From Trichodelitschia bisporula (lineage: Eukaryota), in the NCBI GenBank assembly GCA_010356995.1, contig ML996688.1, forward strand, positions 1,116,001-1,180,000: 64,000 bases of DNA, in the 5' to 3' direction. Positions 1,824 through 24,438 of the stretch are shown here, in pieces (position 1 is the first letter of the stretch; every line of letters starts with the position of its first letter). The notes beneath the pieces were generated by a model, which ran no database searches, was not told the origin of the DNA, and saw nothing but the letters and a program-made list of their open reading frames with translations. The translations under genes were made by a program, and so were the position numbers.

Positions 1824-3029
1824 CTACAGCTTAGCCTGCACCGGCCCCACCTGACTCTTCGCCTCTTCAATCAACCCCAGCGTAATGGCGGCGACGGGAT
1901 CCCGCTCCTGTCCGACCTGGTATGCAATCGGGCTGCTGGCCTGCCGCGAGGCGTAGCGCGCTGCAATGCCCTGGAAGATGATGACGTTTCGGTACATGGC
2001 GAAGGCCGTTCCCCAAGGGATGTCCGGCCGCGGGTCCCATCCTGCGAGGCTGGCGTACAGGTCGATGCACTCGGCACGCGTCGGCAGCCCGGCGAGCAGC
2101 TTTGACGGCGTGAACTCGATGCGCGAGTTGCGGCGCTGCTCGCGCGTGCGCGCCGTGATGGTGTACGGCTCGAGGAGGCAGCAGAGATCGGAGAGAGGAT
2201 GACCGATGGTGGACATTTCCCAACTGCAAAAGTTAGAAGGTATTTCGTCGCTTTCTTTGCTCGACTCACTCCAGGATGCCAATCACCCGCGGCTCCGTCT
2301 TGTGGTAGACGAGGTTGTCAATCTTGAAGTCACCGTGGATCAACGTTCCCCGGTCTTTCGGCTGAGTCTTCGTCTCCTTGAAGTACTCATTGAAGAACTC
2401 GGTATGCGGCACGAGACCGACAGCCTCACCCGTCTCAATGTCCTTGACCACCGCCTGGCTCTTGTTCAGCGTATCGAAGGTCGCGATCTGGCGGTTGTAG
2501 AAGCCAGTAGGCTTGCCAAACTTCTGCAGGCCGACGGCAGCCACGTCAACGGAGTGCAGTTTCGCGAGTGTCCGAACGGCATCCTTCCACATCTCGTTGC
2601 GCTCCTCGGGGCTAACATCGGGCATGTGCGGCTCCTCAATGATACGTCCGTCCAGGAACTCCATGATGTAGAACGCCGAGCCGATGACATTGTCGTCGGT
2701 GCAGAGGCCGTACGTCTTGGGCACCGGGACGTTGGTTTTCTCCAGTGCGTGCAGTACGCGGTACTCGCGGTCGACCTTGTGCGCCGACTTGTTGATCAGT
2801 GTGCCTGGGGGCTTCTTGCGGAGGACATATTTCTGCTTGTCGGCGGAGATCAGCTGGTATGTGGGGTTCGACTGCCCGAAGCCAAACTGTGCCTGTTAGC
2901 TGGCTATCTTTTTACTACGGCATAACTTACCTGCTTCACCGTCAACGGTGTCTTGATCTCCGGGACATTGGTGTTGAGATATCTCTCCAGTGACGGGATG
3001 TCGATCGGTTGCCTCACGGGACCGGCCAT
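1824..3029 (-). CDS. APH-family phosphotransferase, ACAD10/11 N-terminal kinase type (LvaA-like), peroxisomal
   Basis: Three exons: [10 protein letters not shown]...[12 protein letters not shown]...RKKPPG...HGDFKIDN, and [15 protein letters not shown]. Ends in PTS1 tripeptide -AKL. Confidence 0.9.
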
Positions 3030-3578
3030 TGTCAAGATGTAAGAATGATTTGATCGAGAGTTACAACTTGCAGTCTTCCTTTCTCCCAAATCCCCATGAT
3101 ATGCACCCTCTAGCCTAGTGTCCAACCTCCCATTCCCGCTCCCTCGCGGTCCGAGGATGAATTCGCCTACGCGCGGCCTGGACGCTTGGCCGAGCGCGAA
3201 GCGGGCGCGGTCCCCGGAATGCGCTATCGTGCCCGGGAGCCGGGTGTGCTTAACCGGCTCAGCCTCCCCGAAATAAGTGAATGCGGGTCCGCGCACCCAG
3301 AACTGGGCATGCTCATCCACATCGACTACTTTGCCACTAGGATAACAGCGGTCATTGAGCGCCGTGGACTAAGCGTGATGGCGCTAATGCCCCGCTGTGG
3401 GGTCGCTGCGAACTTCGGTTACCCCGCGACATGGGGTTGCTGAGAAAGGCTTGTGGAGACGGTTTCGCGGGTTCACGCGGGGAAGGGGTAGGGAGCGGGG
3501 AGCATTTGAGTGAACGCGTTTCCGGGTGCTGAGCTGATTTTTGGGTTAAGTTTTTTTGTTTGCTTTGGATTTGGAGCA

Positions 3579-4812
3579 ATGGTTGGTAAACACGCGCTTG
3601 TCTTTGGCGCCAGTGGCATCTCTGGCTGGGCCATCACGAAGGAGATCCTGCAAGGCTATCCCTCCCCCGATGTCTTCTCCAAGGTCACGGCGCTCACGAA
3701 CCGTCCGCTGAGCAAAGAGGCCAGTCTCTGGCCGGACAGCGAGAAGCTCCAGCTCGTCAGCGGGGTGGATCTGCTCACGGAGAAGGGACTGGAGGGTCTG
3801 GAAGCGGAGCTCAAGGAGCGGGTTAAGGATGTCGAGACCGTGACACACGTCTACTTCTTCGGTGCGCAGGCAATATCCCCTTCATGAGCCTCCGCTAACC
3901 GCCCGCAAAGCGTACGTCATGGACGAAGACCCTAAGAAAGAAATCGCCATCAACATCACCCTCCTCGAGCGCGCCGTCCGCTCCATCGAGCACCTCTCCC
4001 CTAAACTCGAATTCGTCGTCCTCCCCACTGGCACCAAACTCTACGGCGTACACCTCATCCGCGACTTCCCATTCAGCAACCAGCTTCCCCTCCGCGAAAC
4101 ACTCCCCGACATCCCGGAGCCCCACGCCAGCCAGATGTTTTACTACGACCAGCTGCGGGAGCTCAAGAACCTGAGCGAGGGGAAGAAGTGGACTTGGTGC
4201 GAGGTTGTGCCGGATATGATTGTGGGTTTCGTCCCGAATAACAACATCTACTGCCTTGCGCAGGCGCTGGCGCTGTACCTGTCCTTGTACCGCAAGCTTA
4301 ACGGCGAGGGCGCCGAGGTCCCGTTCCCCGGGACCGAGGATTCGTGGAGGATCTTGAGCAATGATTCGGGGCAGGACATCATCGCCCGGTTCAGCATCTT
4401 CGCCTCCTTGCACCCGGACAAATGCGGCAACGGCCGCCGGTTCAACGTCGCCGACAGCAACACCCCCAAGTCCTGGGCGGTGAAGTGGCCCGTCATCTGC
4501 GCGTTCTTCGGACTGAAGGGCGTGGCTCCGCCTCCGGGTGGGAGCGGCCCGCAGCCTATTCAGTATGTTGCTGATCACTTCGCCGAGTGGCAGAAGCTAG
4601 AGAAGGAATATGGGTTGAAGACCGGGCGGGCGGGGAATGGTCGCAGTTATAATGGGTTTCCGTACTTTATTATGACGATGTTTGATTTTGATAGGCATAT
4701 GAGCTTGAATGCTATGCATGAGGCGTGGGGGGGGGAGAGGGAGGAGACGGATGTTAAGGGGACGTGGTGGACGGCGTTTGAGAGGTTTAGGGAGGCGAAG
4801 ATTATTCCATAG
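3579..4812 (+). CDS. PRISE-family atypical SDR (progesterone 5-beta-reductase/iridoid synthase-like, SirQ-like) enone reductase, copy 1
   Basis: ALVFGASGISGW, TGTKLYG, FYYDQ, PDMIVGFVP motifs; one intron near 3862-3910. Confidence 0.85.
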
Positions 4813-5261
4813 ATTTTGGGGGGGGGATATGTTCGGTGTTTGAATGATATGCCAATGTCATGAACTCTGATGCTTCAGTTTACCATTTCTCCGCTTGATG
4901 CCACAAGAACGCCCCTGATCGTCCTGAATATCAACGAGCTCTAGGTATTCAGTCTGTAATCCGTCTATCTCAACCGCATAGAACATGCTTTCAAATATAA
5001 ACGGCAGCGGCTGGTCGAGTTGTCCTCGTTGTCGATGGTGTCACAGCCCAGCCTTGCTGCCGTCGGGGCTGACAAATTTGCCCAACCAGCCTCGTGCATC
5101 CTGGGACGTGGACGATGAGGTCGTTGATCAACAAGGCACAGCACAAGGCACAGCACAGTCATCATCCAGTCCTCAGATGCCAGTCATGTTCCATTCAAGG
5201 TTCAGATGCAATTATCAGAAAAGTATATACATAAAGCCGCTCTCGCCCCACAACCCCACAT

Positions 5262-6678
5262 CTAAAAGTCTGTCGCACCATACTTGACATACTCAACCCC
5301 CCACTTCTTGCACAACTCCTGGTGCCTCTTCTGATACGCCAGATGCCGCTCCTTAAACCCCCCCGCCGTCTTCATCTGATCCCGCCCAACCTGATGCCTA
5401 TGCGCCGAATCCGGCCCATCCGCCACCCTCACAAACCGCGCATAAGTCCACATCTCCGGCAGCGCCGTATGCTGCGTCAACCCCTGCCCGCCATACATCT
5501 GCATACACTCATCGATAACCTTCGTCGCCACATTCGGCACCAAAATCTTGCACTGCGCAATCACATACCGCCCCGCCTTGCCGCCCAGGATATCAATGGT
5601 GTCCGCGGCGTTCAGGACGAGTTGCCGCATGCTGTCGATCTCCATGCGCATGCTCGCGATCCGCTCGATGTTGCTGTCGAACTCGCCGATTAGCTTGCCG
5701 CGAGGCTTCTTTTGCGGCTCGATGCAGCGGATCAGCGCGAGCTCGTACGCCCGCTCCATTTGCCCGACCAGCCGCATGCAGTGGTGGATACGGCCCGGCC
5801 CGAGCCTGCCCTGCGCGATCTCAAACGCTCGCCCGGGCCCGAGGATGATGTTCTCGATAGGCACGCGCACGTTGTCGTACACATACTCGCCATGTCCCTC
5901 CGGCGCATGGTCATACCCCATAATCGTGATATTGCGCACCATCGTCAGGCCCTTCGCGCGCGACGGGACTACGACCGTGGTATGCCGCTTCCAAGGGTCG
6001 GGGTTGGTGGGATCGGAGCACCCCATCAAGATGTAGATGCCGAGATCGGGGTTGGCTTGCGAGTTACCGTAGAGTTTGCGGCCGTTGATGATGACTTCGG
6101 AGCCTTCGATGCGCATGCTCAGGCCGATGTTCGTGGCGTCGGAGGAGGCGACGTCCGGCTCGGTCATGCTGTAGGCGGAGGACATGGTACCGTCCATGAG
6201 GGGTTTGAGCCAGCGCTCCTTCTGCTCGGGGGTGCAGTATTTGGCGAGGAGCTCAATGTTGCCGGTTTCGGGGGCGTGGCAGTTCATCGTCTGCGGGGAT
6301 TAGCCTACGCTTCTGGGTTCAATTGAAAGGGTGAGAACGCACCTGCGCAGCCCAATAACACCGCCCCATAATCTCAGCACAGCACGCATACTCGAGATTC
6401 GTAAGCCCAGGGCTCTCCTTGAAGTGGTTCGGCAGGAAGAGATTGAACAGGCCCTGGGCCTTCGCTTTCTTGCGCAGCTCCTCGATCAGCGGCGGGGTCG
6501 TCCAGTGCTTGCCTGCGACTGCGAGCTGGGCCTTGACGACGGGCTCTGCGGGGACGCATTCTGTCTCGACCCAGTCGTGCACTTTTTGGATGGTTTCGAT
6601 GGCGTTGGGGCGGAGCTTTGCCTTGACCCAGGGAGGGATGCGGTTGAAGGCGGGGTTGTTGTCCATTGAGACGGTCAT
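5262..6678 (-). CDS. Acyl-CoA dehydrogenase, ACAD10/11 C-terminal type (LvaC-like)
   Basis: GLTNLEYA, NCHAPETGN, MTEPDVASSDATN, AQGRLGPGRIHHCMR, RVADGPD (Asp at the position of the usual catalytic Glu, as in ACAD10/11); one intron near 6291-6342. Confidence 0.92.
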
Positions 6679-7210
6679 TGTGGCGGCTCGTCAGGTAGAA
6701 TGTGAGATGGAGAGATGGCGTGAGAGTGATGATGAATTGCAAGACTGCGTGAGGATGTTTTATGAAGCTCTCTCCATCGCGCATCTCAACACAGCCTGTA
6801 GTCGGCTACGAGCCGCAAACCAGGGACGCGCCGAGGCGTGGCTGGCACCATGGTGGCCGAGGGCATGAGGTTGGACGTGGGTGAACATCTCCGTTCCGAC
6901 TTCCGAGAATACCGCCGACGTGAAGATCAGGCCTGTGGTTGGCTGTGCGATCGCTGGGCCCCGGACTCCACATTTTGACGAGCCGCTAGCCCTGTTTGAA
7001 CTGCTGATCAGGGTGCGAGGCTGGAACTGCGGAGACACACCCTGGCTCCGAGTTATACTACGTATGTGGAGACTTTATGCCGGCTACGCAGCTGGTGGGA
7101 TATTAATGAGGCTGAAGCTCCCCGCAGAGGCGGGGTAGTTTGTCACTCTTGCCTGAGACTGATCCCGCATCCAACGATATCCCCTCCTTAATCACATCCT
7201 CAGTATCAAA

Positions 7211-8321
7211 ATGGCAGATGAAGGCTTCGCCGCGCCCTGGGTGGCCGTACGTCCCCCACCCAGCTCTCTCTCCCCAACTAACCCCTTCAGTTCGAGAAAG
7301 AACTCGGCCAACGCCCCCTCCTCAAAGGCGGCCTCGAAGCGGTCTTCAAAGCCTGGGCCGCCCTCGGCGGCGCCCTCGTCTCAAAGTACACCTTCCCGGC
7401 CCCCGACCCCTCCGTCAACACAAAGGACCAAACCCTTCCGAACTCCAGCCTCAAAATCCGCATCTACACGCCCAAGGGCTACGACTCCAGCAATCCGAAG
7501 CCGGTAGGTCTGTACATCCACGGCGGCGGCTGGGCAATGGGCGACCTCGACGCCGACGACGCGACGTGCCGCGCCATCGCCGCCGGGGCTGGCGTCGTGC
7601 TCGTGTCCGTGGACTACCGGCTTGCACCGCAGAACCCGTACCCGGCGGGATTGGACGATTGTGCAGCGGCATTTCGGTGGATGCTGGAGAATGCGCGCGC
7701 CCTCGGCGGGGTAGAGGGGAAGGTGTGGACAGTGGGCGCCAGTGCCGGGGGAGGGTCGGCGCTTGGACTTGCGCTGAAGCTGGTGGATGAGGGGTTGGGA
7801 GACAAGGTAGCGGGGATTGTGAGCCAGGTGCCTGTTACGGTGCATCCGGATGCTGTGCCCGAGAGGTTGAGGGGCGAGTATACGAGTTATGAGGAGCATA
7901 AGGAGCACACGGTTAATTCGAAGGAGGCGATGTATACGTTTTGGAGTAAGTGGTTTCGTTGGGGCTTTGCGGGATGCGTGCTGACGGTTTAGATGCGTAT
8001 GGCGCGCCGCCGACGGATAAGTATGCGAGTCCGTTGCTGCATCCGAAGCTCGCGGAGCTGCCGAAGACGTACATCACTTGTGCGGGGCATGATACACTGC
8101 GGGATGATGCGAGGCTTATGAGGGCCGAACTGGAGGCCAAAGGGTGAGTTGGTTGAGACTGCGAAGAGACAGTGTTTAACAAGCATAGGGTTCCGGTCAA
8201 GTACGATGAGTTCCCCGGCTATCCGCATTACTTCTGGACGTTCCCGTCTGCGCAGTTGAAGGAGCCGGCGTCGGAGTACATTCGGAAGCTGGTGGCGGGC
8301 GTTGCGTTTGTCCTTTCGTAG
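7211..8321 (+). CDS. HSL-family alpha/beta hydrolase (esterase/lactonase)
   Basis: HGGGW oxyanion motif, DYRLAP, GASAGG nucleophile elbow, GHDTLRDD, GYPH; three introns; TAG at 8319-8321. Confidence 0.88.
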
Positions 8322-8960: not shown

Positions 8961-10064
8961 ATGAAGGCCGGCCAATTCGACTTCGTACGTCTTCCAAACC
9001 CTGATGTCCCAATCCTAACAACCCCCAGGCGACCAAAAAAGCCGTCGTCAACGATGTGCCCATCCCAGAGCCGGGCCCCAACCAGGTCCTAATCAAAGTC
9101 AAATCCGCATCGCTCTGCCATAGCGACCTGATGCCGGACTTCCGCCCGGAGGGCCCGCCGCGAACAATGGGCCACGAAGGCGTCGGCGTGATCACGAAAC
9201 TCCACCCCTCCGTCGAGGGCCGCGACTTCAAAGTCGGCGACCACGTCGGCGCCGGCTACTTCGTCGACGCGTGCTTCAAGTGTGATGGGTGCTTGACGCA
9301 CAACATGCTGTGCCAGACGAAAACGCCACGGCTGCAGGGTTTCATCGCCGATGGGTTCTTCGCTGAGTATGCGATTGTGGAGTATGAGAACTTGGCGGTG
9401 CTGCCGAAGGAGGTGGATCTTAGCCGGTATGCGCCGGTTTTCTGCGCTGGTATTACGGGTAGGTGGGCTTGGGGTTGGGGGGATTTCGGCTGACGGTGTA
9501 GCTTTCCATGCTGTTGATTCTTGCGAGCTGAAGCCGGGCGAGTGGCTCGCTGTTATCGGGTGCGGTGGCCTCGGACAGCTGGCGACGCAGTATGCTAAGG
9601 CGATGGGGCTGAAGGTCGTGGGTATTGATGTCAATGACACGACGCTCGAGGTCACGAAGGCACAAGGCGCAGACGCGATTTTTAACTCTCGTTCGAACCC
9701 GAACTACGTCGCTGAGCTGAAGAAGCTTACAGATGGGGGCGCGCACGCGGCGGCTGTGTTCAGCGATGCGGATGCGGCGTATGCGCATGCGCCGGAGGTG
9801 TTGCGTCTCCGAGGCTTGCTGATGGTGGTTGGCTTGCCGAAGAATCCGCTGAAGATTACAGCGGTGGATTTGTGCATTGGGAAGTATAGAATTAAGGGCG
9901 AGAGCACGAGCATTCCGCAGAGGATGAAGAAAGCGGTTGATTTCACAGTTAAGCATGGCATTTTGCCAGAAGTGGAGTTCAGAAAGCTTGAGGAGTTGCA
10001 GGATATGATTGATGAGATGACGGAGGGCAAGGCGACCAAGCGTATGGCGGTGGTGTTTGACTGA
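8961..10064 (+). CDS. Zn-dependent medium-chain alcohol dehydrogenase
   Basis: LCHSD, GHEGVG, structural-Zn CxxCxxC...C, FCAGIT, GCGGLG; two short introns. Confidence 0.92.
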
Positions 10065-10505: not shown

Positions 10506-11171
10506 ATGACCCACGCAAAGATCGATCACAAATTCAGCTACGATGAGCTCGCCTACGACACTCCGAAGAACTACCAGCGTACGTCCATCGCTGTATTCTC
10601 ACGCCTCTAACACTCCCAGCCTGTGTCAAGCTTTCCTTCTTCTTCAACAAGTTACCCAATGTCTCGTACGAGCACTTCCATCGCCACTGGGAGACGGTGC
10701 ATGCGGACCTTGCCATCTCGGCTAGAGAGTTTGGGCTGTGCGGTCTGAAGCGCTATTCTCAAGTACAACTTCCCCCCAGTTAGCAGGATGTGCGATTCTG
10801 ACCTAGTACAGCACCACCAAACGCCCGACTTCAAGGAAAAGGTCACGGCGTTAGGCATGGATCTGATGGACTACGACGGCTGCTCGGAGATCTGGGTTCG
10901 GAGCATGGACGACTGGGAGCGCTTTTTCAAGGTGCGCCTCATAGCGCGCCACCGCATTTCGGGCCTTTTCTTCGCTTCACACTGCTGACGACCCCACTAG
11001 AGCCCCGAGTACAACGCCGCTATGTCGAAGGATTGTGCGAACTTCATGGGCATGCCTATCCGTGTTATGGCGGGGAGGGAGCATCTGGTGTTCGGGAAGG
11101 CGATTCCCGGCTTGGATGGGACGGATGGAATAACGGTGCATAAGGCGACACATGGCCAGAAGGAGGGGTAG
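10506..11171 (+). CDS. EthD-domain (dimeric alpha-beta barrel) protein
   Basis: Spliced reading MTHAKIDHKF...FFFNKLPNVSYEHFHRHWETVHADL...DYDGCSEIWVRSMDDWERFFK|SPEY...DCANFM fits the EthD pattern; about three introns, with approximate boundaries. Confidence 0.72.
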
Positions 11172-11835: not shown

Positions 11836-13802
11836 ATGGCGGCCGGTTCAACGGACTCAGTGTCCATCCACGGCCGCGACCCCGAGAAGCTACAAGCGGA
11901 GAAGATCGAGGACCCGCATGTTGTCGAAGTGCAGCGCCCGGAAGAAAATGAGAGAGTCACGGCAAAGACATGGCTCGTCATCTTTGTACGCTGGGCCCCT
12001 ATCGTGACAAGCTTGAACTGACTCTCAGGTTCTCTCCTCAACCTTCGGTCTCTCTTTCTGGCCTGTCCCCACGACAGGCGCCATGCAAACCGGTCTAGGG
12101 GCTCGCTGGGGGGACATCACATCAACTTACTGGTACAGTATGTACGTCCCTCCTTGCAGCGTTAAGATACTGATGAGCTAGTTCCGGCCTACACGACGGC
12201 TAACGCGCTCGGCTTCCTGCTCGCTGGTGCGAACAGTGACATATTTGGTCGCCGGCTATTCCTGTATGTCTCAGTCCACAGGGGAGATTTAGCTGACATC
12301 CCAGCCTCGCCGGCAACGTCATCTGCTGCCTTGGGTTTATCCTCAGCGCAACCGCAAAGGAGCCAATGCAATTGTACGTCCCCTACTCAACCACCACCTC
12401 CACAGCTAACCGGACAGTACCGCTGGTCTTGCCGTTACCGGCTTTGGGGGCGGCGCCTGTCAAATGGCCATGTGCTCGATCCCCGAGTTGATGCCGAACA
12501 AGTACCGACACATTGGAATCTGCATAAGCGACGGCTTCGTCTTCGTCATCGTGGTCATCGGGCCCGTCGTCGGGCGCTACGCCATCGACACCACTGACGG
12601 CTGGAAGTACATCTACTGGGGCGGCTTTGTCGCACAATTCTGCAGCTTGGTCGCCCTGGCCTTGCTCTACTATCCCCCGCGGCACCCGAAGGGCGTGCCC
12701 TGGAAGGAGGGACTGCGCGGCCTGGACTACGTGGGCTCTGTGCTTGTTGTGCCGGGCATTTGCGCAGCGCTCGTCGGCATCATCAACACGACATACAAGA
12801 GCAGCACGGATCCGAGCGTCATCGCACCAATTGTCGTTGGCTTTGCACTGCTGATTGCGTTCGGCTTCTGGGAGAACTTCGGCGGTGTCAAGTACCCGCT
12901 CTGCGAGCCGGCTATCTTCCGCAGCAACTACGGGCGGGAATTTACGGTGCCGTTCGTTATCGCTTTTATCGTCACCATGTTCTACTACGCCATCAACATC
13001 ATCTACCCGACCATGATCAACGTCTTCTACGTCACTCCAACAACCTCCCGAAGCGAGACGTTGCTCCTGACTCTCCCCGGTAACCTGGGTCTTGTGTTCG
13101 GTGCCATGCTCCTCATCTGCTTCGGCAACCTGATCGGCCATTGGAAAATTACCCTGGTCGTCTCATGGGCGGGCATGTGCTTCTGGGGCGGGATGATGGC
13201 CCTCGTCACTCCTACTAACAAGGGCATGATGATCGCATTCACTTTCCTCGAGCAGACCTTCTTCGGCTGGGCGCAGTACGAATCCGTCGCTTTCACCCAG
13301 CTGGGCGTCAAGCAAGTTGACCTTGGTATGAGCGGCGGTCTTGCGGGCGTGGCTCGCTATGCCGGCGGGAGTCTGGCACAGGCCATTTATGTCAGTATCA
13401 TGACGAATGTGCAGACCAAGAAGGCCGCGGAGCTGCTGCCCAAAGCCGCTATTGCTGCGGGTATCACACCTGCCAACGCGCAGAAGCTGCTTGCCGCCTT
13501 CCCTCTGGGAGCAACGGCCATTGGTGCCGTCGACGGCGCGAATGACACGGTGTTGGCTGCCGCGACCGAGGCGTGGAAGTGGAGCTATGCGCATGCGTTG
13601 AAGGTCACTGCGCTGTCGTCGCTGAGTTTTGGCGGCATTGGACTGATTCTCTGCTGCTTGTGCGAGAACATTGATCACAAGATGAATGAAAATATTGAGG
13701 TGTTCCTTGAGTAAGTACCTCGTTGCGTGGATGGCGGAGCTTTTGCTGACTTAATGCAGGAACGATATTAATGCGGATAAGAACGCTGCGGCGACGCATT
13801 GA
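11836..13802 (+). CDS. MFS transporter, TRI12-like (fungal trichothecene efflux pump family)
   Basis: Many hydrophobic segments; SDIFGRR, GWKYIYW, YYPPRHPKG, LDYVG motifs; several short 5' exons and one 3' intron. Confidence 0.88.
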
Positions 13803-14408: not shown

Positions 14409-15638
14409 CTACGACGGGATGATCTTCGCCTTCTTCAACCGATCAAACACCGGACCCCATGCCTCGATCGTGGTCCTCTCCTCCGTGAACCCAGTCGAAT
14501 ACATCTTGGTCATATCATACTGGCGATCGAAATCAAACTGGGTGAACAGGAAATACTCGAAGCCGGCATACGTCATCGGCGAGTCCGCAATTCCCGTCTT
14601 AAGTCCATGATTCCGCTCCAACTCCTCCCACGTCTTCCAGTGCTCCTTGATGTACGCCCGCACTTCCAGCTGCTCCTCCGCCTTCTCAGGCGGCGCCACA
14701 CCCTTCAGCCCAAAGTACCCAGCCAGCGCCGGCCACTTCTGCTCCCAGGATGACGGGTACTTAGCATCGGCGACGTTGTATCCCTCGCCCTTGTGCTCCG
14801 GGCCGAGCGTGAGTGTCAGATGCAGCGTCTGGCGGGCAATCATATCCGAGCTCGAGTCAATGCTCTTCGCGACCCACGCCTTGCGGGACCCGGGATACGG
14901 GACCGTGGCACCGGGGCCATTTACCGCCGCATACAGCGACAGGAAGACGGCGGTGCTGGTCGCCAGGCTGTAGAAGTTCTGGTTCGGCACAAAGCCGATG
15001 ATGATGTCCGGGCGCGTGTCGATCCAGTTCCATTTCTTGTCTTTGGCGTACGAGGTCACCCAGTCTAGCTGCGGGTGGTAGAAGAGTTGGTCGTGGTAGG
15101 GCTGGCGCAGGCGTGGGAAGGATTCTTTCAAAGGCACCTGGATGTAGTCTGTTGGGTGGTTCTCGAGCAGATGGCATCCGTACATCTTTGCGCCGGTTTG
15201 GAGAACTTGGAACTCGAGTGCGGGCGAGAGGTGGTCTAGCGCCGTCGCCGACCGCCGCCACATATCCACCGCGTCCTTCAGCTCCTGATCGCGGTCCTTG
15301 GACGCCTTGTACGCTGGACATGTCAGTCAAGCTTACACTTCCTACTGCTGCAGCTGCTAACCTAGGTAGTAGACGTGCGTCACTTTATCAACATCGGGAA
15401 TCTCGCGCTTGATCTCCGCCTCGAGTTCTTCCTGTGTGCCTTTGAGCAGGTCGATCCCAGACACAATGTTCAGCCGCGAGTCCGCGGGCCAGAGGCTATC
15501 TTCCTGCTTCAGAGGTCGGTTTGTGAGCGCGTGGACCTTTTCCCAGACTCCCGGCTTGGGGTAGTCGGTGAGGATCTCGTTGACGAAGGACCAGCCGGTC
15601 ACGCCGGAGGCACCGAAGACGAGGGCGACTTTGCCCAT
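14409..15638 (-). CDS. PRISE-family enone reductase, copy 2
   Basis: ALVFGASGVTGW, QTGAKMYG, LFYHPQ, RPDIIIGFVP; intron at the position equivalent to copy 1; similar C-terminus (AKIIPS). Confidence 0.85.
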
Positions 15639-16234
15639 TGCGAATACTGCGAAAGATGAAGCTTGGGGTGTAAGGGATGAGGTTGAGGGTACAGTATGTC
15701 GTCCCGCGGCAGCCAGAGTACTTGATATTGCCCCTCATTGAGGGGCACAGCCCCACCCTCCCCCTTTACCGCCGATCTAGCACACCCTTCAAACGCTCCG
15801 GCATCTCACATCCTCAGCCAAGTTTCTCGCGTCCCGCATCCAGCAACGTCGAGGAAGACGCCAGCCGAGCGCGGAAGAAGACTGCAGTGCGGGCAGGGGT
15901 ATGCTAGCGCGCGGGGCGGGGGCTGCGCGGGGCATGCCCCGTGGGGTAAGACCCCGCATCTAGCGCCTCACCCCCCCGCCAACCGCCTCACCTCTTAATC
16001 CGAACACTAAAAATGACGAAGCGAACGCAGGTGGAGATGCTTTCCCGCATCCGCTTGGGACGCCAGTCCCAGCGCGTAACCCATGATCTCAGCGGTGGCA
16101 TGGCGGAGATACGCCTTACCCCCGTCTCACCTCCAGGTAGCAGATGTGCCGAAAACGCGGCGCACATGTAAAGCGCGCGCTCGCTGACCCGGGACCTACT
16201 CGTGCCCACACAATCCAGAAAGCACCAAACAGCC

Positions 16235-16966
16235 ATGTCCTCCTTTCCCTCGTACACCGTCCCCACGGCCTCTGGGCCAGGGGTCCTGTTCGTGAACTCG
16301 AAAATCGTGTCCCCGACCCTCAGTCCTTCCGTCTACACGGAGTGGTACGAGGATGTGCACATTCGCGACATCCTCGCAACCAGCGGTATCAAAAGCGCGT
16401 ACCGGTACTACAGCACCTGTCCTGAGCAAGTGGAGAGACCGTATATGGCGCTCTACCCGCTGAAGGCGGTGGAATTTTTGCAGAGCGATGAGTTTAAGGC
16501 GATTCCGGTGGTTAATAATGTTATTCCGGGCTCCGGGATGGTGTTTGACTATGCGGACTTTGATACGAGGTACTATACGCATGTTGCGGCAAGCGAGGCG
16601 CAGGGTGCGGTGAAGGGTATGTCTGGCCTGAAGGTTGCTGGAAGGGAATGTACTGATGATACAGGTCCCGCGCCCTTCCTCGCCGTGATCGCGCTCTCGG
16701 ACCCGGCGACCGATGCCATCTTGTCCCTGGCCAAGGACTCCGTGCGCCGTGTTCGGATCGCGGAGAACTATTTCTCGAGGCAGAATCGCCTACCGGCTGA
16801 GGCGAATAAGCTGGCGGCGCCGCCGAAGTATCTGGTCATTGTGGAGGCGGATACGGAGGACGGGCTGAGGGGGGCGGTTGAGGCGGGGGAGTTGAAGGGG
16901 GGGAAGACGGCGAGTTTCAAGTTGTTGAAGGGGTTTGGGGAGAAGGAGCAGGTGTATTTTGAGTAG
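16235..16966 (+). CDS. Uncharacterised EthD/Dabb-like protein
   Basis: YTEWYEDVHIRDIL...GIKSAYRY...YMALY pattern; putative 48-nt in-frame intron at 16617-16664. Confidence 0.6.
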   Translation: MSSFPSYTVPTASGPGVLFVNSKIVSPTLSPSVYTEWYEDVHIRDILATSGIKSAYRYYSTCPEQVERPYMALYPLKAVEFLQSDEFKAIPVVNNVIPGSGMVFDYADFDTRYYTHVAASEAQGAVKGMSGLKVAGRECTDDTGPAPFLAVIALSDPATDAILSLAKDSVRRVRIAENYFSRQNRLPAEANKLAAPPKYLVIVEADTEDGLRGAVEAGELKGGKTASFKLLKGFGEKEQVYFE

Positions 16967-17102
16967 AGTTTAAAAATGAGATCGTTGAATATTCAGATTC
17001 CGTCTGCTGCTACACCTAAAATTCGGTGACTACGTCTAGCAGGTACATGAGGCTGTCTAAAATGCGATTAAGTATATGATGCTCTAGCAAACGGAGTCCA
17101 GT

Positions 17103-17220: not shown

Positions 17221-17232
17221 TTTTGTCTTTTT
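17220..17232 (+). terminator. RNA polymerase III T-tract terminator of the 5S gene
   Basis: TTTTTGTCTTTTT directly at the 5S 3' end. Confidence 0.75.
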
Positions 17233-17503
17233 GCCATATTCCTTTGCGATTGCTACGAACTGATATCACATTCCTGAGCCCAACACGCCGGCCATCATTT
17301 TGGTCCGCGGGGGGCTGAGGAGAGGAAAGTAATGGCGCGGCTGGACGCCTTGGTGCCTTATTGCCAGTTTCAGCCTTATGGACTAGCGATATTTTAAAGC
17401 GAGTGAACGAAATCCATACGCAGCAAATGAATCACACTTGACCGCCATCATTCAGAACTCATGCCATTTCTCATTTTATGTACATTAGGCCCTGTCCAAC
17501 GGC

Positions 17504-19084
17504 CTAGTAATTCAAATTCACCATCACAGTCTTAAGCTCCGTAAACGCCCTAAGCGCATGCACACCACACTCGCGCCCCAACCCACTCTCCTTACTCCCC
17601 CCAAACGGCGCATTCATAAACATAAGACTGACGCAGTTCACGCCCACCATGCCGGACTCAAATTCGCTCGCCACGCGTAGGGCTTTGTTGATGTCCTGCG
17701 TGAAGACGCCGGCCATGAGCCCGAAGTTGGTGTTGTTGGACAGTTCCATGATTTCCTCCTCGGTGGAGAATTTACGCACAACGGACACGGGGCCGAAGAT
17801 TTCTTGCGTGTGGATTTCGGATTGCGGGTCGACGTCGGTGAAGACGGTGGGTTCGATGAAGAAGCCCTGCGGGGGGTTAGATGGTGACTGAATTGATGGA
17901 GGTTTACCTTCTCCCCGATCCGCGCACCGCCGACAAGGAGTTTGCCCTGCCCCTGCTCCTTCCCCCGCTGAATAAACCCGCTCACGCGCTTAAACTGCGC
18001 CTCATCCACCAGCGGGCCCAGCATCGTCTCCTTCTCATCCGGATCGCCCACAACACCGCTCTTCGCCTTCATCGCCTCCTTATACTTCTCAATAAACGCA
18101 TCATAAATGCCCTCTTGGACGTACACGCGCGACGCGGCAAAGCACACCTGCCCCGTGTTCCCGGTGATCGCGTTCGCAGTCCAGGTCACCGCGTTGTCCA
18201 GGTTCGCGTCGTCGAAGATTACGGCGGGAGACTTGCCGCCGAGTTCGAGGGTTACGCGCTTGAGATTGCTGCGCGCGGCCATTTCTTGGATTTTCTTTCC
18301 TGTTGGGATGGAGCCGGTGAAACTTACTTTGCGCACGCGCATGTGCGATGCGATTAGCGCGCCTGTGCTCCCGTCTCCACTCAAAACCTGGAAAACACCA
18401 GCCGGGAACCCGGCTTCTTTGATCAGCGGCCCGAGCGCCAGGGATGCAAACGGCGTCTTCTCGGAGGGCTTGAGGATAAAACAATTCCCGGTAGCGAGCG
18501 CGGGGGCAGCCTTGAGACCCACGGTGCCCAGCGGCCCGTTCCAGGGCACAATGCCCGCGGTCACGCCGAGCGGCTCGTTGCGCACGATTTTGAGGAAGCC
18601 GTCGTCTTGGGGGAAGGACTCGCCGGCGAATTTGTCGATCCAGCCGGCGTTGTAGCGGAAGGCCTTGGCCAGGATTAGCTTTGCTATCTACCGAGTGTAT
18701 GGGTGTTTAGAAGGAAAGTGGGAGACATACCTCAGCAGCCAGCCCGGCCTCGAACTTGCCAAACGACTCATACGGCGCGCCGAGCGTGATGCGCGTCAGC
18801 TCCGCGAGTTCGACGGCGTGCGCCTCTATGAGGTCGGCGAATTTGGTAAGGATCGCGCGGCGCTGGACGGCGGGGAGCTTGCGCCATGCCGGGAAGGCCT
18901 TTTCGGCGGCATCGACGGCGGCGTCGACGTCGGCAGCGTTGGCGATGGGGACGTCATCTGCGACGAGGGTGTTGTCCTTCGGGTTGTGCACCGTGAGCTT
19001 CGCGTCGCCTGTAGAGTTGACGTATTCGTTGTTGATGAAGAGCTGCTTTGGCAGGTTGGACCTGGAGAAGGTGAAGGATGACAT
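17504..19084 (-). CDS. NAD-dependent aldehyde dehydrogenase
   Basis: LFINNEYV, GIVPWNGP, LKPSEKTP, FTGS, LELGGKS, GQVC (catalytic Cys), APFGGSKESGLGRE; two introns. Confidence 0.95.
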
Positions 19085-19631
19085 TGCGGATGTTTAGGTT
19101 GAAAGGGAGAGGTAAGTGTGTAGACGGGATTGAAGAGGCGGCGCTGGTGTTCCCAAATACGCGCGCCGGACGCGCCGCGCCGTGATCGTGGGGCCGGAGG
19201 CATGGATGCTGGGAGAGGCGGCTCGAGGCGGTTTTGGTTATCCGCATGGCGGGTGGTGGGGTTAATGCTGCGTATCGCCGCGTTTCCCCACATCGGGCAT
19301 GCTTGGCGCGGCTGGCGCGGGGTACGTTTGGCGGGGCGCGGGGATGGACATGGTCTTCCGGTTGGACGGTGTCATGAGATTCATGGATTGGAGTTGGCGT
19401 GAGTTGGGGGGCGGTTGGGCGGATGATGTGTGTGCCGGGGTGAGAACGAGTGCCTGGAGTGAGATGAGGGGTTACGTGCGAGGGGTGGCAATGATGAGGG
19501 GAATGAAGAAAGGCTGAGTAGATATTTGGCGGGTTGGTTCGCTGATCGGCTGTTTAGCATCAGTTCCATTCTTCTTGCACATCACCTTCCTCAGAAACTT
19601 AGCACTCTAAGTTCTTTGATCAATTGGCGTC

Positions 19632-20543
19632 ATGGCGAAGAAAGTTGCTCTCATCACGGGTGGCGGTATGTCCTCTCCCATTAAGGCATGCCCACAACTA
19701 ACATCCCCAGCCAGCGGCATGGGCCTCGCCGTCGCCGAAGCCCTCTCCGCGCGCGGCGGCTGGGACCTACACCTGCTGGACCTGAACACCGAGCGGGGCG
19801 AAGCAGCCGCAAAGTCCGTCAGCGGCTCCTTCCACAAGACGGACGTCAACAACTACGCCTCCCTATCCAGCACTTTCGACAAGATCCACAAGACGGCCGG
19901 CCGTCTCGACTTCGTCTTCGCCAACGCCGGCATCGTCGAGCGCTGGAACTTCTACGGCAAGCAAGAGCAGACCCCGCCTCCGGAGCCAGACATGCTCTCC
20001 ATCGACATCGACCTCAAGAGTGTAGTCACCACGACCTACCTCGCGCAGCACTACTTCCGCCTCTCTCCCAATGCTGGCTCGGGGGAGCAGAACCTCGTCA
20101 TGACGGCGAGTTGTGGCGGGTTTTATCCCAGCCCGTTCTCGCCTATGTATTCGGCGGCGAAGCATGGCGTCGTGGGCCTGACGCGGTCGGTGGCGAAGCA
20201 TTTCTACCTCGCGGATCGCATCCGCGTTAATGCCATTTGTCCCGGCACGGTTAGGACGAATCTGCTCGATTCGACGGGTTGGGATCAGTGGCCGGAGGAG
20301 TACTTCACGCCCGTAGAGACGATTGTCAAGGCGGTGCTGACGCTGGTGGACGGCGGGGATATGGTGGATGCGAAGGGTGTTAAGGTGGAGGCTGGGAAGG
20401 ATTGGGGTCGCTGTGTTGAGGTTAATGGGAAGAACTTGTACTTCCGTGAGCAGATTGAGTACTGTGATGAGAATATGGCACAGGTCATGCGGATTACGGA
20501 TATTTCGGAGCGCAAGTCCGAGGATCTCAAGTTCTACAAGTAG
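19632..20543 (+). CDS. Classical SDR (15-hydroxyprostaglandin/hydroxyaverantin dehydrogenase-like)
   Basis: TGGASGMG after removing the 45-nt intron 19666-19710; FANAGI, YSAAKHG, NAICPG. Confidence 0.9.
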   Translation: MAKKVALITGGGMSSPIKACPQLTSPASGMGLAVAEALSARGGWDLHLLDLNTERGEAAAKSVSGSFHKTDVNNYASLSSTFDKIHKTAGRLDFVFANAGIVERWNFYGKQEQTPPPEPDMLSIDIDLKSVVTTTYLAQHYFRLSPNAGSGEQNLVMTASCGGFYPSPFSPMYSAAKHGVVGLTRSVAKHFYLADRIRVNAICPGTVRTNLLDSTGWDQWPEEYFTPVETIVKAVLTLVDGGDMVDAKGVKVEAGKDWGRCVEVNGKNLYFREQIEYCDENMAQVMRITDISERKSEDLKFYK

Positions 20544-21119
20544 TACAAGATGGACGGAAATGAAATTGATGACTGCTTGAGATGCATATGTTCTGCAGAG
20601 AGAAGTGTGATGTGTCGGGATGCCTGGAAGTGGTCGCTGGATAGAAAGACCGACAGCCGTGGGAGTACGTAGTACAAAACGGTCGGAACGGATATATGCA
20701 CCTCCAGGCTCTCCTTCATGGAACATCATGAATAGCTAGCATACCTTCAACATCTCGTACTTCCTCCAAACCAGCAGACGGACTCGTCTCCAAGCACGTA
20801 AGGTTAACCCGTTCTAATGCTCTTTGTAACACCGCCAAATGTTCAAAGTCCACGGGATGCCCTCAATCGATGCCGCAACGAAGCGGCCGACATACAACTG
20901 CTTCGAAGAATGAGAGTGCTGCGGAACTTCGGAAAGGCCACCCTCTTGGCTCATGTTTTTCAAAACACAGCGACATCACATTGGTGCCCGTTCAAAGGAC
21001 ATCGTCCTACATTGAGAACATGAAGTCGCACTCTGGACTTTTACCAATCGAAGCAACTGCTCAATTCGATATTACACAACTGTCCACCATATCCAAGAAG
21101 AAAGAACCATCATCACCAC

Positions 21120-22902
21120 TCACAGCCTCGCCTTCATCTTACCCTCCAAAACCGGCGCATCCCTCTTCGCCCACTCCTTCAACAACTTCCTTACAATCTT
21201 CCCACTCGCCAACTTCGGCACCTCATCCACAAACGCCACGCCACCGACGAGCTGCTTATGCTTCGCCACCTTCACCTTCATAAACTTATGAATATCCGCC
21301 TCGCCAACCTTCCCCTTCCACTCCTCCTTGAGCACCACATACCCCCGCGGCCACTCCTCTCCATGCAGCGTGACGCCCACACACGCCGCATCCGCCACGG
21401 CCTCGTGCTCCAACAACGCTGCTTCGAGCTCGGCCGGTGCAACCTGCAGCGCGTTGACCTTGATGAGCTCCTTCTTCCGGTCTACGATCCAGAACCACCC
21501 CTCTTTGTTCACGATCGCAATGTCGCCGGTCTTCAGCCATCCGTCCGCGCTTAGCGACTCCTTCGTCGCTTCCTCGTTGCGCCAGTACCCGAGACACACG
21601 TTCGGGCCCCGCACGTAGATCTCGCCCGGCTCGCCCTGCGCCACCTCTTTGCCGTCTTCGTCGAGCAGCTTGCATTCCATCCCGGGGTCCAGGAGACCCA
21701 CGCTGCCGGTGCTGGCGGGGTTAGCATGTCAACATAATAGCAGGAGGGAGGGGAGACATACTCGTCATCCGCACTAAACGGCACATGCATCGCCCCACAC
21801 GTAACCTCCGTCATCCCCCACCCCTGCGTAACCCTAATCCCAAACCTGCGCGTAATATCATTCTGCAGTTCCCTACTCAACGGCGCCGCCCCACACAGTA
21901 TATGCTTCACAGAGCTAATATCCCACTCCTTCGTCTCGGGCCTCTTACTCAGCATCACCAGAATCGGCGGCGCGGTATGCAGATGCGTAATCCGGTACGT
22001 CTGTATCACGCGCAGGAACTCTGCGAACTGGAATTGCCGCATGACGTACAGCGGCAAATTCAGTTTCGTAGCCATGATCACGTACCAGAGTTGCCCGTAC
22101 GCGTGGTACAGTGGGAGGAACCCGACCCAGCGCTCGTCCGGCCGTGTGGCCGGTGTGAAGCCCGTGCCGTGGTACTTGATTACCATGTGCTGCTCGGCGT
22201 TGGCGACGAGGTTGTAGTGGCTCACGCAGACCCCCTTTGGCAGCCCGGTAGTCCCGGACGAGTAGTTCACGGTTGCGATAGTACTTTCGGCTTCCTGGGG
22301 GGTCATGGCGGGGATGACGTGCAAGTCTGCGTCGGCGGGAGAGGCGAGCATGGACCGCCAGTCGGGGATGCCCTGAGAAGGCGCGTTGGGCCTATCGCTG
22401 AATTGGAAGATGCGGCTGTGTGGCAGGCCGGAGGCGGTTGCGGCGGCGAGGGCGGTGGTGAGCAGGTCGGGGTGCACGAGGAGGGTGCGCGCGCCGGTGT
22501 TTTTGATTTGGTGGGTAAGTTCTAGGGCAGAAAGTCAGCCTTGCGCTTGCATTCCTCATCTCCAAACTGCAGGAGGGAGCATGTACCAGAAGCCGTATAA
22601 ATCGGATTCGCAGCACTAAAAATGCGACGGCTCCCCACAATCCCCAAATACGCCGCCGGAACGAAAATATGATTCGGCGTCAGAATCATAACCACCTCCT
22701 GCGCTGCGACGCCGAGCCTATCCAGCCCGAGCGCCAGCCGCTTGACCCACTGCAGCATCTGCCGCGGACTCAGGGAATTGTCTGGGTTCGCGGCTTCGAG
22801 CCAGATGGGCGTTTCGGAGGGCGTGCTGCCGCTGGGGAAGAGGTAGGAGAGGACATCGGTTTTGGGGATGGGGGGGGCGGGGAGGGGGGATGTTAGGACC
22901 AT
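21120..22902 (-). CDS. 4-coumarate-CoA-ligase-like acyl-CoA synthetase, peroxisomal
   Basis: YSSGTTGLPKG, LPLYHAYG, QGWGMTE, GWLKTGD, DRKKELIK, VPKLASGKI; ends in PTS1 -ARL; two introns. Confidence 0.93.
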
Positions 22903-23440
22903 TTTGGCGATGGTAGATGGTAGATGGGAGGAAAGTGGGAGGTAAGCAGCAAGTTGACGACGAGATGAACAATTGAGGTTTATCTACTGGGACTGGGCTC
23001 ACTACGTGTAAAAAGTAAGCCGCAGCCTCGCGCGTCCCGGCGTTAGGCTGGCTGTTCGGTTGCGCGCGGCGACGTCGCGTGGACGCACCCGCAGAGCGAC
23101 AGCCCGCGGAGGCGAACATGCTGGACTGCACACACGACTCTCCGGGCTTACTGGCAAACACGGGAAGATGGCGGCGCGCCGCTTGCGCGTTGCTGCGCTG
23201 TGAGCAGCATGCAGGGAATCGCCTCACTGTTCCGCGCGGCCCGTGGCCGGGGTGGGACCGGGAAAGGATGGCCGGCCGAGGCCGATTGCCTGAGCCATCA
23301 TCCACAAAGTTAGGCTAGCTGGCTAGCTCGGTGGCGGGGGATGGGGGGGATTTGAAGTGCTGTTATCTTCGTTTCGTTTTTTGGGCGACTTGCTTTGGAG
23401 ATTATTGAATTGACGTTTGAGAGTTTGGGACTTTGTGAAT

Positions 23441-24438
23441 ATGTCTGATCTGGGAAACTTTGGCGGGTTGTTCCGCCTCGATGGCAAGGTTGCGGTTATC
23501 ACGGGCGGTATGTGCATTCAAGAGTATACGCGAGCAGTGGCTAATGGAGCAGGATCCCGCGGTCTCGGCCTGCACACCGCAACCGCGTTCCTCCTCGCTG
23601 GCGCATCCAAAGTCATAATCACAGCGCGCAAACTCGAAGGCGCGGAGGGAATCAACCAAGCCGTCTCCAAACTCAATGCACTCCCGGTGCAGGGACGCGC
23701 CATCGGCATCGCAGCCAACGTCGCCGACACCGCGGATATCGAGCGGCTCGTCAAAGAGATCGGCAAAACGGAGAGCAAGGTGGATATCGTGGTTGCGAAC
23801 GCGGGGGCTACGTACGGCGGCCCGTTCGACACGACGCCAGATGAATTTAATAAGAAGATTTTGGATTTGAATGTTAGGGGGGTGTTTAACCTCGTGCGGC
23901 TGTACGTCTCCCTCTCCATCCCCAATTCCTCACTGATCGATACTCCAGCCTCCTCCCGCTCCTCGAAGCAGCCGCCACGCCCACCGACCCCTCCCGGGTC
24001 ATAATCGTCTCCTCGACCGCAGGAATCAACGTCCCACACGTAGGCCAACACGGCACAATCATGTACTCCGTGTCCAAAGCCGCCGCGCACCACCTCAGCC
24101 GGAACCTAGCAATGGAGTTGGGGCCTAGGAATATCACCGTCAACACCGTGGCCCCCGGTTTCTTTCCTTCGAAGCTGGCGAAGGGATTGATTGATATCCT
24201 GGGCGGGGATGAGCAGTTGCGGGATGATAATCCGCGGAAGAGACTCGGGGAGCCAAGTGATATTGCGGGGGTTATGGTGTATTTGGCGAGTCCGGCGGGG
24301 GCGTATGTGTAAGTTGAATTCCTCCTTACCTTCGGATCGTAAGAGCGGGTGGGACTGACTGATGGGCTTAGCAATGGAGAGGACATCTCAGTTGACGGCG
24401 GGATGCGGCTGGTAACAGGGCGGCACTCGAAGATTTAG
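23441..24438 (+). CDS. Classical SDR (3-oxoacyl reductase/RhlG-like), probably peroxisomal
   Basis: TGGSRGLG after removing intron 23508-23552; ANAG, YSVSK, VAPGFFPSK; last exon NGEDISVDGGMRLVTGRHSKI ends in PTS1-like -SKI. Confidence 0.88.

Follow-up and report, generated by a model that had tools for sequence, protein, structure and literature searches.

A probable conserved catabolic gene cluster of Trichodelitschia bisporula with a peroxisomal entry module for 4-hydroxy and 4-oxo acids

We analyzed a 64,000-nucleotide stretch of the genome of Trichodelitschia bisporula (assembly GCA_010356995.1, contig ML996688.1, positions 1,116,001 to 1,180,000 of the forward strand), hereafter called the window and numbered from its first letter, with the focus on an APH-type kinase and an acyl-CoA dehydrogenase (ACAD) that resemble the two halves of mammalian ACAD10 and ACAD11. 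The sequence is fungal, and its introns are short. Gene models and a Pfam scan of 153 open frames (77 + 76) across the whole window gave the following features, among which two short-chain dehydrogenases (SDRs) are distinguished as SDR_A and SDR_B and two reductases of the PRISE family as PRISE1 and PRISE2.

1824..3029, minus strand: APH-type kinase, 3 exons, 371 amino acids, C-terminus -AKL; Pfam APH
3579..4812, plus strand: PRISE1 reductase, 2 exons, 394 amino acids; Pfam PF22917, 1.6e-37 and 1.5e-126
5262..6678, minus strand: ACAD of the ACAD10/11 type, 2 exons, 454 amino acids, C-terminus -TDF
6679..7210, no strand: divergent spacer between ACAD and esterase, likely a shared promoter
7211..8321, plus strand: esterase, Abhydrolase_3 (GDXG/HSL type), 4 exons, 324 amino acids; Pfam 1.2e-34
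about 9005..10064 (approximate limits), plus strand: zinc alcohol dehydrogenase (Zn-ADH); Pfam ADH_N and ADH_zinc_N
about 12166..13714 (approximate limits), plus strand: TRI12-like transporter of the major facilitator superfamily (MFS); Pfam TRI12, 1.2e-28
about 14409..15734 (approximate limits), minus strand: PRISE2 reductase; Pfam PRISE, 1.1e-120 and 9.9e-38
16172..16966, plus strand: conserved frame of 264 amino acids without known family; 44% match in locus L011 beside PRISE2
about 17504..19000 (approximate limits), minus strand: aldehyde dehydrogenase (ALDH); Pfam Aldedh, 7.1e-89 and 1.9e-41
19632..20543, plus strand: SDR_A, short-chain dehydrogenase; Pfam adh_short, 5e-28
21120..22902, minus strand: acyl-CoA ligase, 4-coumarate-ligase-like, 3 exons, 555 amino acids, C-terminus -ARL; Pfam AMP-binding and AMP-binding_C
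22903..23440, no strand: divergent spacer of 538 bp between ligase and SDR_B, putative promoter region
23441..24438, plus strand: SDR_B, short-chain dehydrogenase, 4 exons, 280 amino acids, C-terminus -SKI; Pfam adh_short
about 25300..27100 (approximate limits), plus strand: cytochrome P450 (P450); Pfam p450, 1.2e-44
about 28600..30640 (approximate limits), plus strand: type I Baeyer-Villiger monooxygenase (BVMO); Pfam FMO-like and NAD_binding_8
33305..35834, plus strand: fungal-specific transcription factor, a possible regulator; Pfam Fungal_trans

An initial annotation of this DNA had picked out the kinase, the ACAD, the ligase and SDR_B, and the gene models place all four, intact, at the coordinates it gave, with the outer limits 21120 and 24438 exact. 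The distance between kinase and ACAD, put there at about 2 kb, measures 2.2 kb, and the gap is filled by PRISE1, a gene that had gone unmentioned; the divergent pairing of ligase and SDR_B was likewise confirmed. Transcript contigs exactly skip introns 2224-2269 and 2887-2930 of the kinase and 6291-6342 of the ACAD, which read GT..AG on the gene strand, and the same contigs skip the PRISE1 intron 3861-3909 and the three esterase introns. Thus, the kinase, PRISE1, the ACAD and the esterase are transcribed and spliced as modelled. These contigs came from two runs of one study whose RNA nature was guessed; their joints show that they derive from mRNA, they cover these four genes only, and they allow no ranking of expression. 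A single contig (1700-4877) spans both the kinase and PRISE1, including the 5' spacer that the two genes share, which suggests that their divergent transcripts overlap or abut.

The kinase is encoded by three segments of the minus strand (3029..2931, 2886..2270 and 2223..1824), and its product is identical to database protein P0271. Pfam APH matched exon 2 at 5.1e-36 and the whole protein at 4.8e-46. Exon 2 gave five matches in total in the Protein Data Bank (PDB), led by 3dxp (8e-45) and ACAD11 (8v3v, 7e-37), and then falling to 9e-18 and 2e-5. The protein keeps the Arg-Glu pair, the HGDxK..N motif and the DWE metal site, and the residues concerned (R56, E74, H217-G218-D219, K221, N224 and D239-W240-E241) were invariant or at least 90% conserved in an alignment of 36 sequences. 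The kinase motif residues R61, E78, D214, K216, N219, D234 and E236 are needed for activity, according to the available portions of a preprint (bioRxiv 10.1101/2025.09.10.675409). With an APH fold, ACAD10/11-type proteins as the nearest solved relatives and every checked signature residue in place, the protein is the stand-alone ACAD10/11-type kinase that had been proposed.

In a library of 1.84 billion representatives (50% identity), the nearest relatives of the kinase (50-65% identity) were mostly stand-alone proteins of about 350-400 residues. Thirteen longer representatives were scanned; four carried ACAD domains, five DUF7064 or DUF7065 and one YVC1, and in the fused kinase-ACAD forms the kinase part was 43-49% identical to the window kinase. 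Among the best 120 longer proteins, kinase orthologues were nearly all 360-460 residues long and came from many Pezizomycotina, and ACAD orthologues of 66-82% identity were equally found to be widespread in that group. Because stand-alone orthologues of both proteins are so widespread, the two-gene form looks like the rule in Pezizomycotina. By sequence, the kinase and the ACAD are general conserved genes of Pezizomycotina and not inventions of this cluster.

Several observations concern unusual relatives of the kinase. DUF7064 or DUF7065 takes the place of the ACAD as fusion partner in P0147, P0152, P0161, P0174 and P0216. P0121 (1062 amino acids), the best kinase representative, was considered as a kinase-ACAD fusion and rejected, since its extra part is a YVC1-type channel; it is probably a merged gene model. 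P0324 and P0347 contain kinase orthologues within very long proteins with many repeat-type domains (one is named a WD-domain protein) and are probably merged models as well. One Exophiala kinase orthologue is named 'putative acyl-CoA dehydrogenase IBR3' in a source.

The ACAD is encoded by minus-strand segments 6678..6343 and 6290..5262 and is identical to database protein P0001, whose Pfam domains PF02771, PF02770 and PF00441 make up the three-domain ACAD fold. Its exon 2 matched Acyl-CoA_dh_1 at 3.9e-24 and Acyl-CoA_dh_M at 33.2 bits, just below the cut-off of 33.3 bits. In the PDB, exon 2 matched the bacterial structure 4hr3 at 7e-83 and ACAD11 chains at 3e-73 (2wbi) and 3e-72, whereas the best ordinary ACAD, medium-chain acyl-CoA dehydrogenase, matched at 5e-23. 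Mouse ACAD11 has the catalytic residue D753 together with R626, H634 and R637, which are described as uniquely conserved in ACAD10/11 and LvaC in the portions of PMC12440821 available to us. We mapped the mouse numbering onto the window protein by hand from PDB alignments, and the counterparts D403, in VADGPD, and R274, H282 and R285, in GRLGPGRIHHCMR, were invariant in 34 sequences (32 fungal and 2 bacterial). The ADGPD motif of the initial annotation is therefore present as VADGPD at residues 401-406, and its assignment of the enzyme to the ACAD10/11 type agrees with both the structural matches and the conserved Asp and Arg/His/Arg helix.

Judged by these alignments, the kinase and the ACAD lie within the clade formed by ACAD10/11 and LvaA/LvaC. 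In ACAD10/11, 4-hydroxyacyl-CoA receives a phosphate from the kinase part, and removal of this phosphate by the ACAD part gives 2-enoyl-CoA, as reported in the portions seen of PMC12440821 and PMC11342911. Because the window proteins belong to a family with enzymes of known chemistry, the same phosphorylation and elimination very probably apply to the window pair.

The ligase is encoded by minus-strand segments 22902..22587, 22521..21762 and 21711..21120 and is identical to database protein P0393. Its nearest solved relatives are 4-coumarate ligases and luciferases, the best being 4CL2 at 2.8e-27. SDR_B is encoded by plus-strand segments 23441..23507, 23553..23901, 23949..24308 and 24372..24438 and gave only distant matches among solved structures. 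We consider it probable that the ligase and SDR_B work together with the kinase and the ACAD.

Peroxisomal targeting signals of type 1 (PTS1) follow the strict consensus [SAC][KRH][LM] at the C-terminus. The kinase ends in -AKL, and a strict PTS1 was found in 77 of its 114 orthologues, most of the others ending in -GKL, -PKL, -ASL or similar. The ligase ends in -ARL, as do its orthologues in related loci L001, L002 and L004, and 67 of 89 full-length ligase orthologues carry a strict ending. SDR_B ends in -SKI; its orthologues in L001, L002, L004, L015 and L024 end in -SKL, -AKL, -AKL, -AKM and -AKM, respectively, so that a strict PTS1-type ending is present in each of the five orthologue records with an identified last exon. 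This pattern fits a peroxisomal lower pathway with the upper pathway elsewhere, if the location of the ACAD is left aside. As to the ACAD, a hand check of its N-terminus against the PTS2 consensus found no signal of this type, its Exophiala and Penicillium orthologues end in -PKL and -AKL, and it is possible that the enzyme is imported into peroxisomes while bound to the kinase. SDR_A has no PTS1-type ending in its open frame, which excludes its last exon.

Three of the upper enzymes show signature motifs of their families. Esterases of the GDXG/HSL type are recognized by an HGGG oxyanion motif and a GxSxG nucleophile motif, and the esterase model contains HGGGW and GASAGG; the enzyme is a candidate lactone or ester hydrolase, the preference between the two not being readable from sequence. 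Zn-ADH keeps its zinc ligands (CHSD, GHE and a Cys-rich structural-zinc stretch). Type I BVMOs have two dinucleotide-binding motifs and the fingerprint FxGxxxHxxxW[P/D]; in the window, GAGASG lies at 28846 and FKGPLMHSAKWD at 29348, and the PDB matches were cyclohexanone and phenylacetone monooxygenases at 1e-18 to 1e-22. For the conserved frame at 16172..16966, no Pfam match was found at E up to 1. Outside the cluster, at 49058-52973 and 56134-60172, lie a full-length ABC transporter, a gene of the metallo-beta-lactamase fold, a second ALDH (57605-59032) and an SDR (59304-60172).

To see whether the genes stay together in other organisms, we used two scans. A metagenome scan anchored on the ACAD yielded 27 loci (25 fungal and 2 bacterial), and a genome scan with narrow patterns yielded 7 loci (1 fungal-like contig and 6 bacterial, none from Pseudomonas). 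The 26 fungal records were collapsed by near-identity of the ACAD region into 20 distinct loci. In 16 of these 20, at least one orthologue of another window gene (45-84% identity) lies beside the ACAD, and the four loci without such a neighbour all have flanks of 3 kb or less. The nearest named ACADs of the loci belong to Dothideo-, Leotio-, Sordario- and Eurotiomycetes. One record, L028, is labelled 'Deltaproteobacteria' and comes from a metagenome-assembled genome; its ACAD, 73% identical to that of the window and adjoined by an SDR_B orthologue, bears introns, and its ACAD region is 100% identical to that of metagenome locus L015, so that it is probably a mis-binned fungal contig.

The most constant neighbour was the esterase, which in 10 of the 20 distinct loci has the divergent arrangement with the ACAD known from the window; the spacer between them is likely a shared promoter. 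PRISE1 (56-70% identity) was found near the ACAD in 7 loci, BVMO (77-84%) in 4 (L002, L004, L005 and L013), Zn-ADH also in 4 (L002, L004, L013 and L017), the divergent pair of ligase and SDR_B in 3 (L001, L002 and L004), SDR_B alone in 1, P450 (63-64%) in 2 (L002 and L004), and PRISE2 (74%) together with SDR_A (54%) in 1 (L011). The kinase was near the ACAD in 2 loci, adjacent to it in L016 and in a window-like arrangement in the organism of L008 and L019. Gene order varies among the fungal loci. By their locus tags, the ACAD and the kinase of two named genomes, Myotisia and Polytolypa, are two genes apart; in other named genomes the distance from ACAD to ligase is 2 genes (Pycnora), 3 genes (Pleosporales sp.) and 10 genes (Coniosporium). 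The esterase, the BVMO and the pair of ligase and SDR are thus repeatedly linked to the ACAD, in agreement with the initial proposal, and on this linkage the BVMO and the esterase may supply the substrate, as it further claimed.

Some genes of the related loci have a looser relation to the window, or none. An AtuA-family gene (PF07287) adjoins the esterase or the ACAD in 8 records from 6 distinct loci (L002:6006-7991, L004:5996-7981, L008, L009, L010, L011, L017 and L026) and was not found in the window. The family is named for acyclic terpene utilization, and these neighbours hint at a terpenoid substrate. L005 and L011 also carry TRI12/MFS genes, of the family to which the window transporter belongs. 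A weak hint of an EthD domain (E=2e-4) was seen at 10547-10780 of the window, and a 56% match to it adjoins the ACAD in L020, which is among the four loci without a window-gene neighbour. In L001, a PEX11 gene of peroxisome biogenesis (L001:13165-13758) lies 8.6 kb downstream of the ACAD and about 4.5 kb past the ligase, which may be chance.

The grouping of the four functions, also part of the initial proposal, recurs outside fungi. Ligase, ACAD and kinase stand in a row in L022, L023, L030, L032 and L034; in L033 the kinase lies 3.5 kb further on, and L029 has the kinase and the ACAD only. An SDR that is 39-43% identical to the C-terminal half of SDR_B is found near L022/L030, L033 and L034, and L022 and L030 probably represent one organism because their match values are identical. 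In L022:606-6793 and L023:2005-8211 the order is SDR, class-III aminotransferase, CoA ligase, ACAD10/11-type ACAD and kinase; such an operon could convert a 4-amino acid first to the 4-oxo and next to the 4-hydroxy form.

Taken together, we favour the reading, with rather better than even confidence, that the region from about 1.8 to 30.6 kb is a conserved fungal catabolic gene cluster whose lower half would serve as a peroxisomal entry module for acids of the 4-hydroxy or 4-oxo kind. In the following scheme, the substrate, each reaction and the sequence of reactions are inferred. Hydroxylation of the substrate by the P450 would be followed by formation of a ketone (Zn-ADH or SDR_A) and by saturation of an enone (PRISE enzymes). 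Insertion of oxygen by the type I BVMO would then give a lactone or an ester, which the GDXG esterase would open to a hydroxy or oxo acid. In the lower half, the ligase (-ARL) would activate the acid to its acyl-CoA, SDR_B (-SKI) would interconvert 4-oxo- and 4-hydroxyacyl-CoA in a direction that we can only presume, the kinase (-AKL) would phosphorylate the 4-hydroxyl with ATP, and the ACAD would eliminate the phosphate to yield a 2-enoyl-CoA for beta-oxidation. Because the esterase is the most constant partner of the ACAD and shares its spacer, a step from lactone to hydroxy acid directly upstream of the module is favoured. That the branch of BVMO and esterase supplies the substrate of the module seems to us evenly balanced. 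The upper enzymes resemble, by analogy, a route that opens the ring of a cycloalkanol or ketone. The initial annotation had assigned chemistry like that of the bacterial lva pathway on a 4-hydroxy or 4-oxo acid to all four genes; the family and the residues of kinase and ACAD agree with this, and the ligase and the SDR would be putative counterparts of LvaE and LvaD.

A good deal weighs against this reading. First, the linkage is incomplete. Only 2 of the 20 distinct fungal contigs have the kinase within the flanks covered around the ACAD, and it was not found in about 10 kb on either side of the ACAD in L002, L004, L011, L012 and L015. The kinase is on another contig than the ACAD in Pycnora, and the ACAD and the ligase are on different contigs in Pseudogymnoascus sp. 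03VT05. Only the esterase is kept in L003 and L012 (flanks of 7-10 kb) and only SDR_B in L015, and because of these nearly bare loci the large cluster is not universal. In the related loci examined, no orthologues of the ALDH, the MFS transporter or the transcription factor were found. Second, the targeting is uneven. The ACAD ends in -TDF, and a strict PTS1 is present in only 10 of 59 full-length orthologues, with 5 more ending in -PKL. PTS1-type endings were not seen in the last frames of PRISE1, PRISE2, Zn-ADH and ALDH, in the esterase model or in the BVMO reading, and the upper and lower halves may therefore sit in separate compartments. Third, a BVMO acting on the common five- and six-membered ring ketones would lead to 5- and 6-hydroxy acids, not 4-hydroxy acids; a 4-hydroxyl would require one round of beta-oxidation, a ring ketone with an acetic acid side chain, or direct uptake of gamma-lactones. 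Finally, the kinase and the ACAD are about 70-80% identical across classes, as would be expected for general-purpose genes.

The strongest rival is that the kinase and the ACAD are general helpers of peroxisomal beta-oxidation for any 4-hydroxyacyl-CoA, such as those from hydroxy fatty acids and from products of lipid peroxidation like 4-hydroxyalkenals, that the reductases, ADH and ALDH detoxify enals and enones, and that BVMO, P450 and esterase belong to a separate pathway nearby. The spread of both genes over Pezizomycotina at about 60-80% identity and the few contigs that have the kinase near the ACAD are what such helpers would show. A Rhodosporidium toruloides strain mutated in an ACAD11-like gene does not grow on ricinoleic acid, which is simply a hydroxy fatty acid, as stated in the available portions of PMC5922974. 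In A. nidulans, AN5287 is among the genes of conidia that depend on NapA, an oxidative-stress factor, together with a 12-oxophytodienoate reductase, alcohol dehydrogenases and a 'steroid monooxygenase'; the main text of PMC5371717 does not mention the immediate neighbours of AN5287 (AN5284-5290). However, the esterase and the ACAD have their spacer in common in 10 distinct contigs, and orthologues of BVMO and P450 (63-84%) recur beside the ACAD in loci of different order. Detoxification of enals would also leave the BVMO, the esterase, the P450 and the AtuA genes of the relatives without a role. We therefore hold this explanation to be unlikely, if far from negligible.

Two further explanations are, in our judgment, very improbable. 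One is that the window holds a secondary-metabolite cluster, in which the MFS transporter exports a product modified by the ligase, the SDRs, the P450, the BVMO and the ACAD. P450s, BVMOs, SDRs, CoA ligases, TRI12-type transporters and transcription factors are common in fungal biosynthetic clusters. Yet domains of polyketide synthases, peptide synthetases and terpene cyclases were all absent from the 153 window frames by Pfam, and no core synthase domain was present in 86 frames of related loci. Moreover, the central enzymes are helpers of beta-oxidation, the relatives carry AtuA, of a family named for terpene utilization, and their cluster adjoins glycoside hydrolases. The other is that the kinase is a 1-O-alkylglycerol kinase of ether-lipid salvage instead of a 4-hydroxyacyl-CoA kinase. 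ACAD10 and the purified kinase domains of several prokaryotic homologues phosphorylate alkylglycerols, as reported in the portions seen of bioRxiv 10.1101/2025.09.10.675409, and the residues named there have counterparts in the window kinase. Against this, the kinase is linked to a phosphate-eliminating ACAD in the window, in two contigs and in two named genomes, and it bears a peroxisomal signal, as do the ligase and SDR_B; both activities may also coexist in one enzyme.

The least probable explanation is that the ACAD works like plant IBR3, which acts in the beta-oxidation of acids of the indole-butyric type, with the 4-coumarate-ligase-like enzyme activating a substrate acid of the aryl- or indole-butyric kind: the IBR3 name of the Exophiala kinase orthologue and the 4-coumarate-ligase-like name and score of the ligase speak for it, but the names are automatic, the phosphate-binding residues and the dedicated kinase indicate a phosphorylated substrate, and no other gene of the cluster suggests aromatic chemistry.

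Returning to the cluster with its peroxisomal 4-hydroxy/4-oxo acid module, we can extend it to a bolder scheme that we rate as unlikely in its entirety. An ancient modular cluster of Pezizomycotina would have a cytosolic branch (P450, ADH, PRISE ene-reductases, BVMO and lactone hydrolase) that opens a common natural cyclic ketone, for example one of the monoterpene ketones or a cyclopentanone oxylipin of the jasmonate kind, and a peroxisomal branch (ligase, SDR, kinase and ACAD) that takes the resulting 4-oxo or 4-hydroxy acid through a 4-phosphoacyl-CoA into beta-oxidation. Lacking a targeting signal in most lineages, the ACAD would be imported bound to the signal-bearing kinase, with a non-covalent complex replacing the animal fusion.

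Only in recent years has phosphorylation followed by elimination been established as a route for 4-hydroxy acids, in a single bacterium and in mammals, and little is known of its natural sources of substrate. The linkage seen here to a lactone or ester hydrolase, a BVMO and ene-reductases offers a testable idea of how 4-hydroxy and 4-oxo acids arise, and the cluster presents a co-evolved set of enzymes for studies of gamma-lactones, levulinate and cyclic ketones. Members of the ACAD10/11 family have already been catalogued in fungi (PMC11817166 and PMC5922974, in the portions available). Our literature search, with subscription journals and supplements outside its scope, found no paper on a fungal ACAD10/11 cluster with ligase, SDR, esterase and BVMO and none on fungal levulinate catabolism via an ACAD. 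What is new is the conserved cluster and its targeting pattern.

Several known systems can be set beside the window. The chn route of Acinetobacter and the route of Rhodococcus erythropolis DCL14 degrade cycloalkanols and monoterpene ketones, respectively. Class by class, they share with the window an alcohol dehydrogenase, a BVMO, a lactone hydrolase of the GDXG type, a Zn-ADH, an ALDH and a CoA ligase, to which the terpene route adds an enone reductase; neither is known to have an ACAD10/11-type kinase or ACAD. The beta-oxidation of ricinoleic acid passes through 4-hydroxyacyl-CoA. Rhodosporidium toruloides has the ACAD11-like genes RTO4_14567 and RTO4_10408, and ricinoleic acid did not support growth of a strain mutated in an ACAD11-like gene (PMC5922974, available portions). 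These fungal homologues with a hydroxy fatty acid phenotype fit a role on 4-hydroxyacyl-CoA; Rhodosporidium is, however, a basidiomycete, and PMC5922974 predates the 4-hydroxy-acid function.

The P. putida lva operon, LvaABCDE, serves levulinate catabolism via a 4-phosphoacyl-CoA (Rand et al. 2017, as described in the portions seen of PMC12440821 and PMC11342911). Like the window, it encodes a CoA ligase, an SDR, a kinase and an ACAD10/11-like ACAD close together, the ligase and the SDR being likened by function. The window differs in being eukaryotic and intron-bearing, with peroxisomal signals and additional enzymes upstream. Its kinase is of the ACAD10/11 and 3dxp kind and its ligase is 4-coumarate-ligase-like. 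No LvaB-like gene was recognized in the open-frame lists of the window, in which no search aimed at LvaB was made. LvaA is 29% identical to the kinase domains of ACAD10/11, and a stand-alone Burkholderia kinase that is closer to ACAD10 replaced the kinase part of ACAD10 in vitro (PMC11342911, portions seen). Because that kinase could stand in for the ACAD10 part, the gap at LvaB is no obstacle. The alphaproteobacterial operons (L022, L023 and L030-L034) share with the window the grouping of ligase, ACAD and kinase with an SDR_B-like SDR nearby, their ACADs being 44-48% and their kinases 31-38% identical to the window proteins. Unlike the window, their genes are co-directional, some have a class-III aminotransferase and a second SDR upstream, and no orthologues of BVMO or esterase were found in the flanks examined.

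Mammalian ACAD10 and ACAD11 share with the window pair the kinase fold, the ACAD subgroup, the catalytic Asp, the Arg/His/Arg helix and the kinase motifs, and ACAD11 is peroxisomal, as the signal on the window kinase would indicate for that protein too. In the animal proteins the two activities are fused, whereas in the window they are two genes with PRISE1 between them and no HAD domain. The window further differs in that the peroxisomal signal is on the kinase, with the ACAD mostly lacking one, and in that both genes lie inside a cluster of ligase, SDR, esterase and BVMO. The window kinase and ACAD would thus represent a split form of animal ACAD10/11 and the counterpart of bacterial LvaA and LvaC, and this split architecture provides a natural experiment on why animals fuse both activities.

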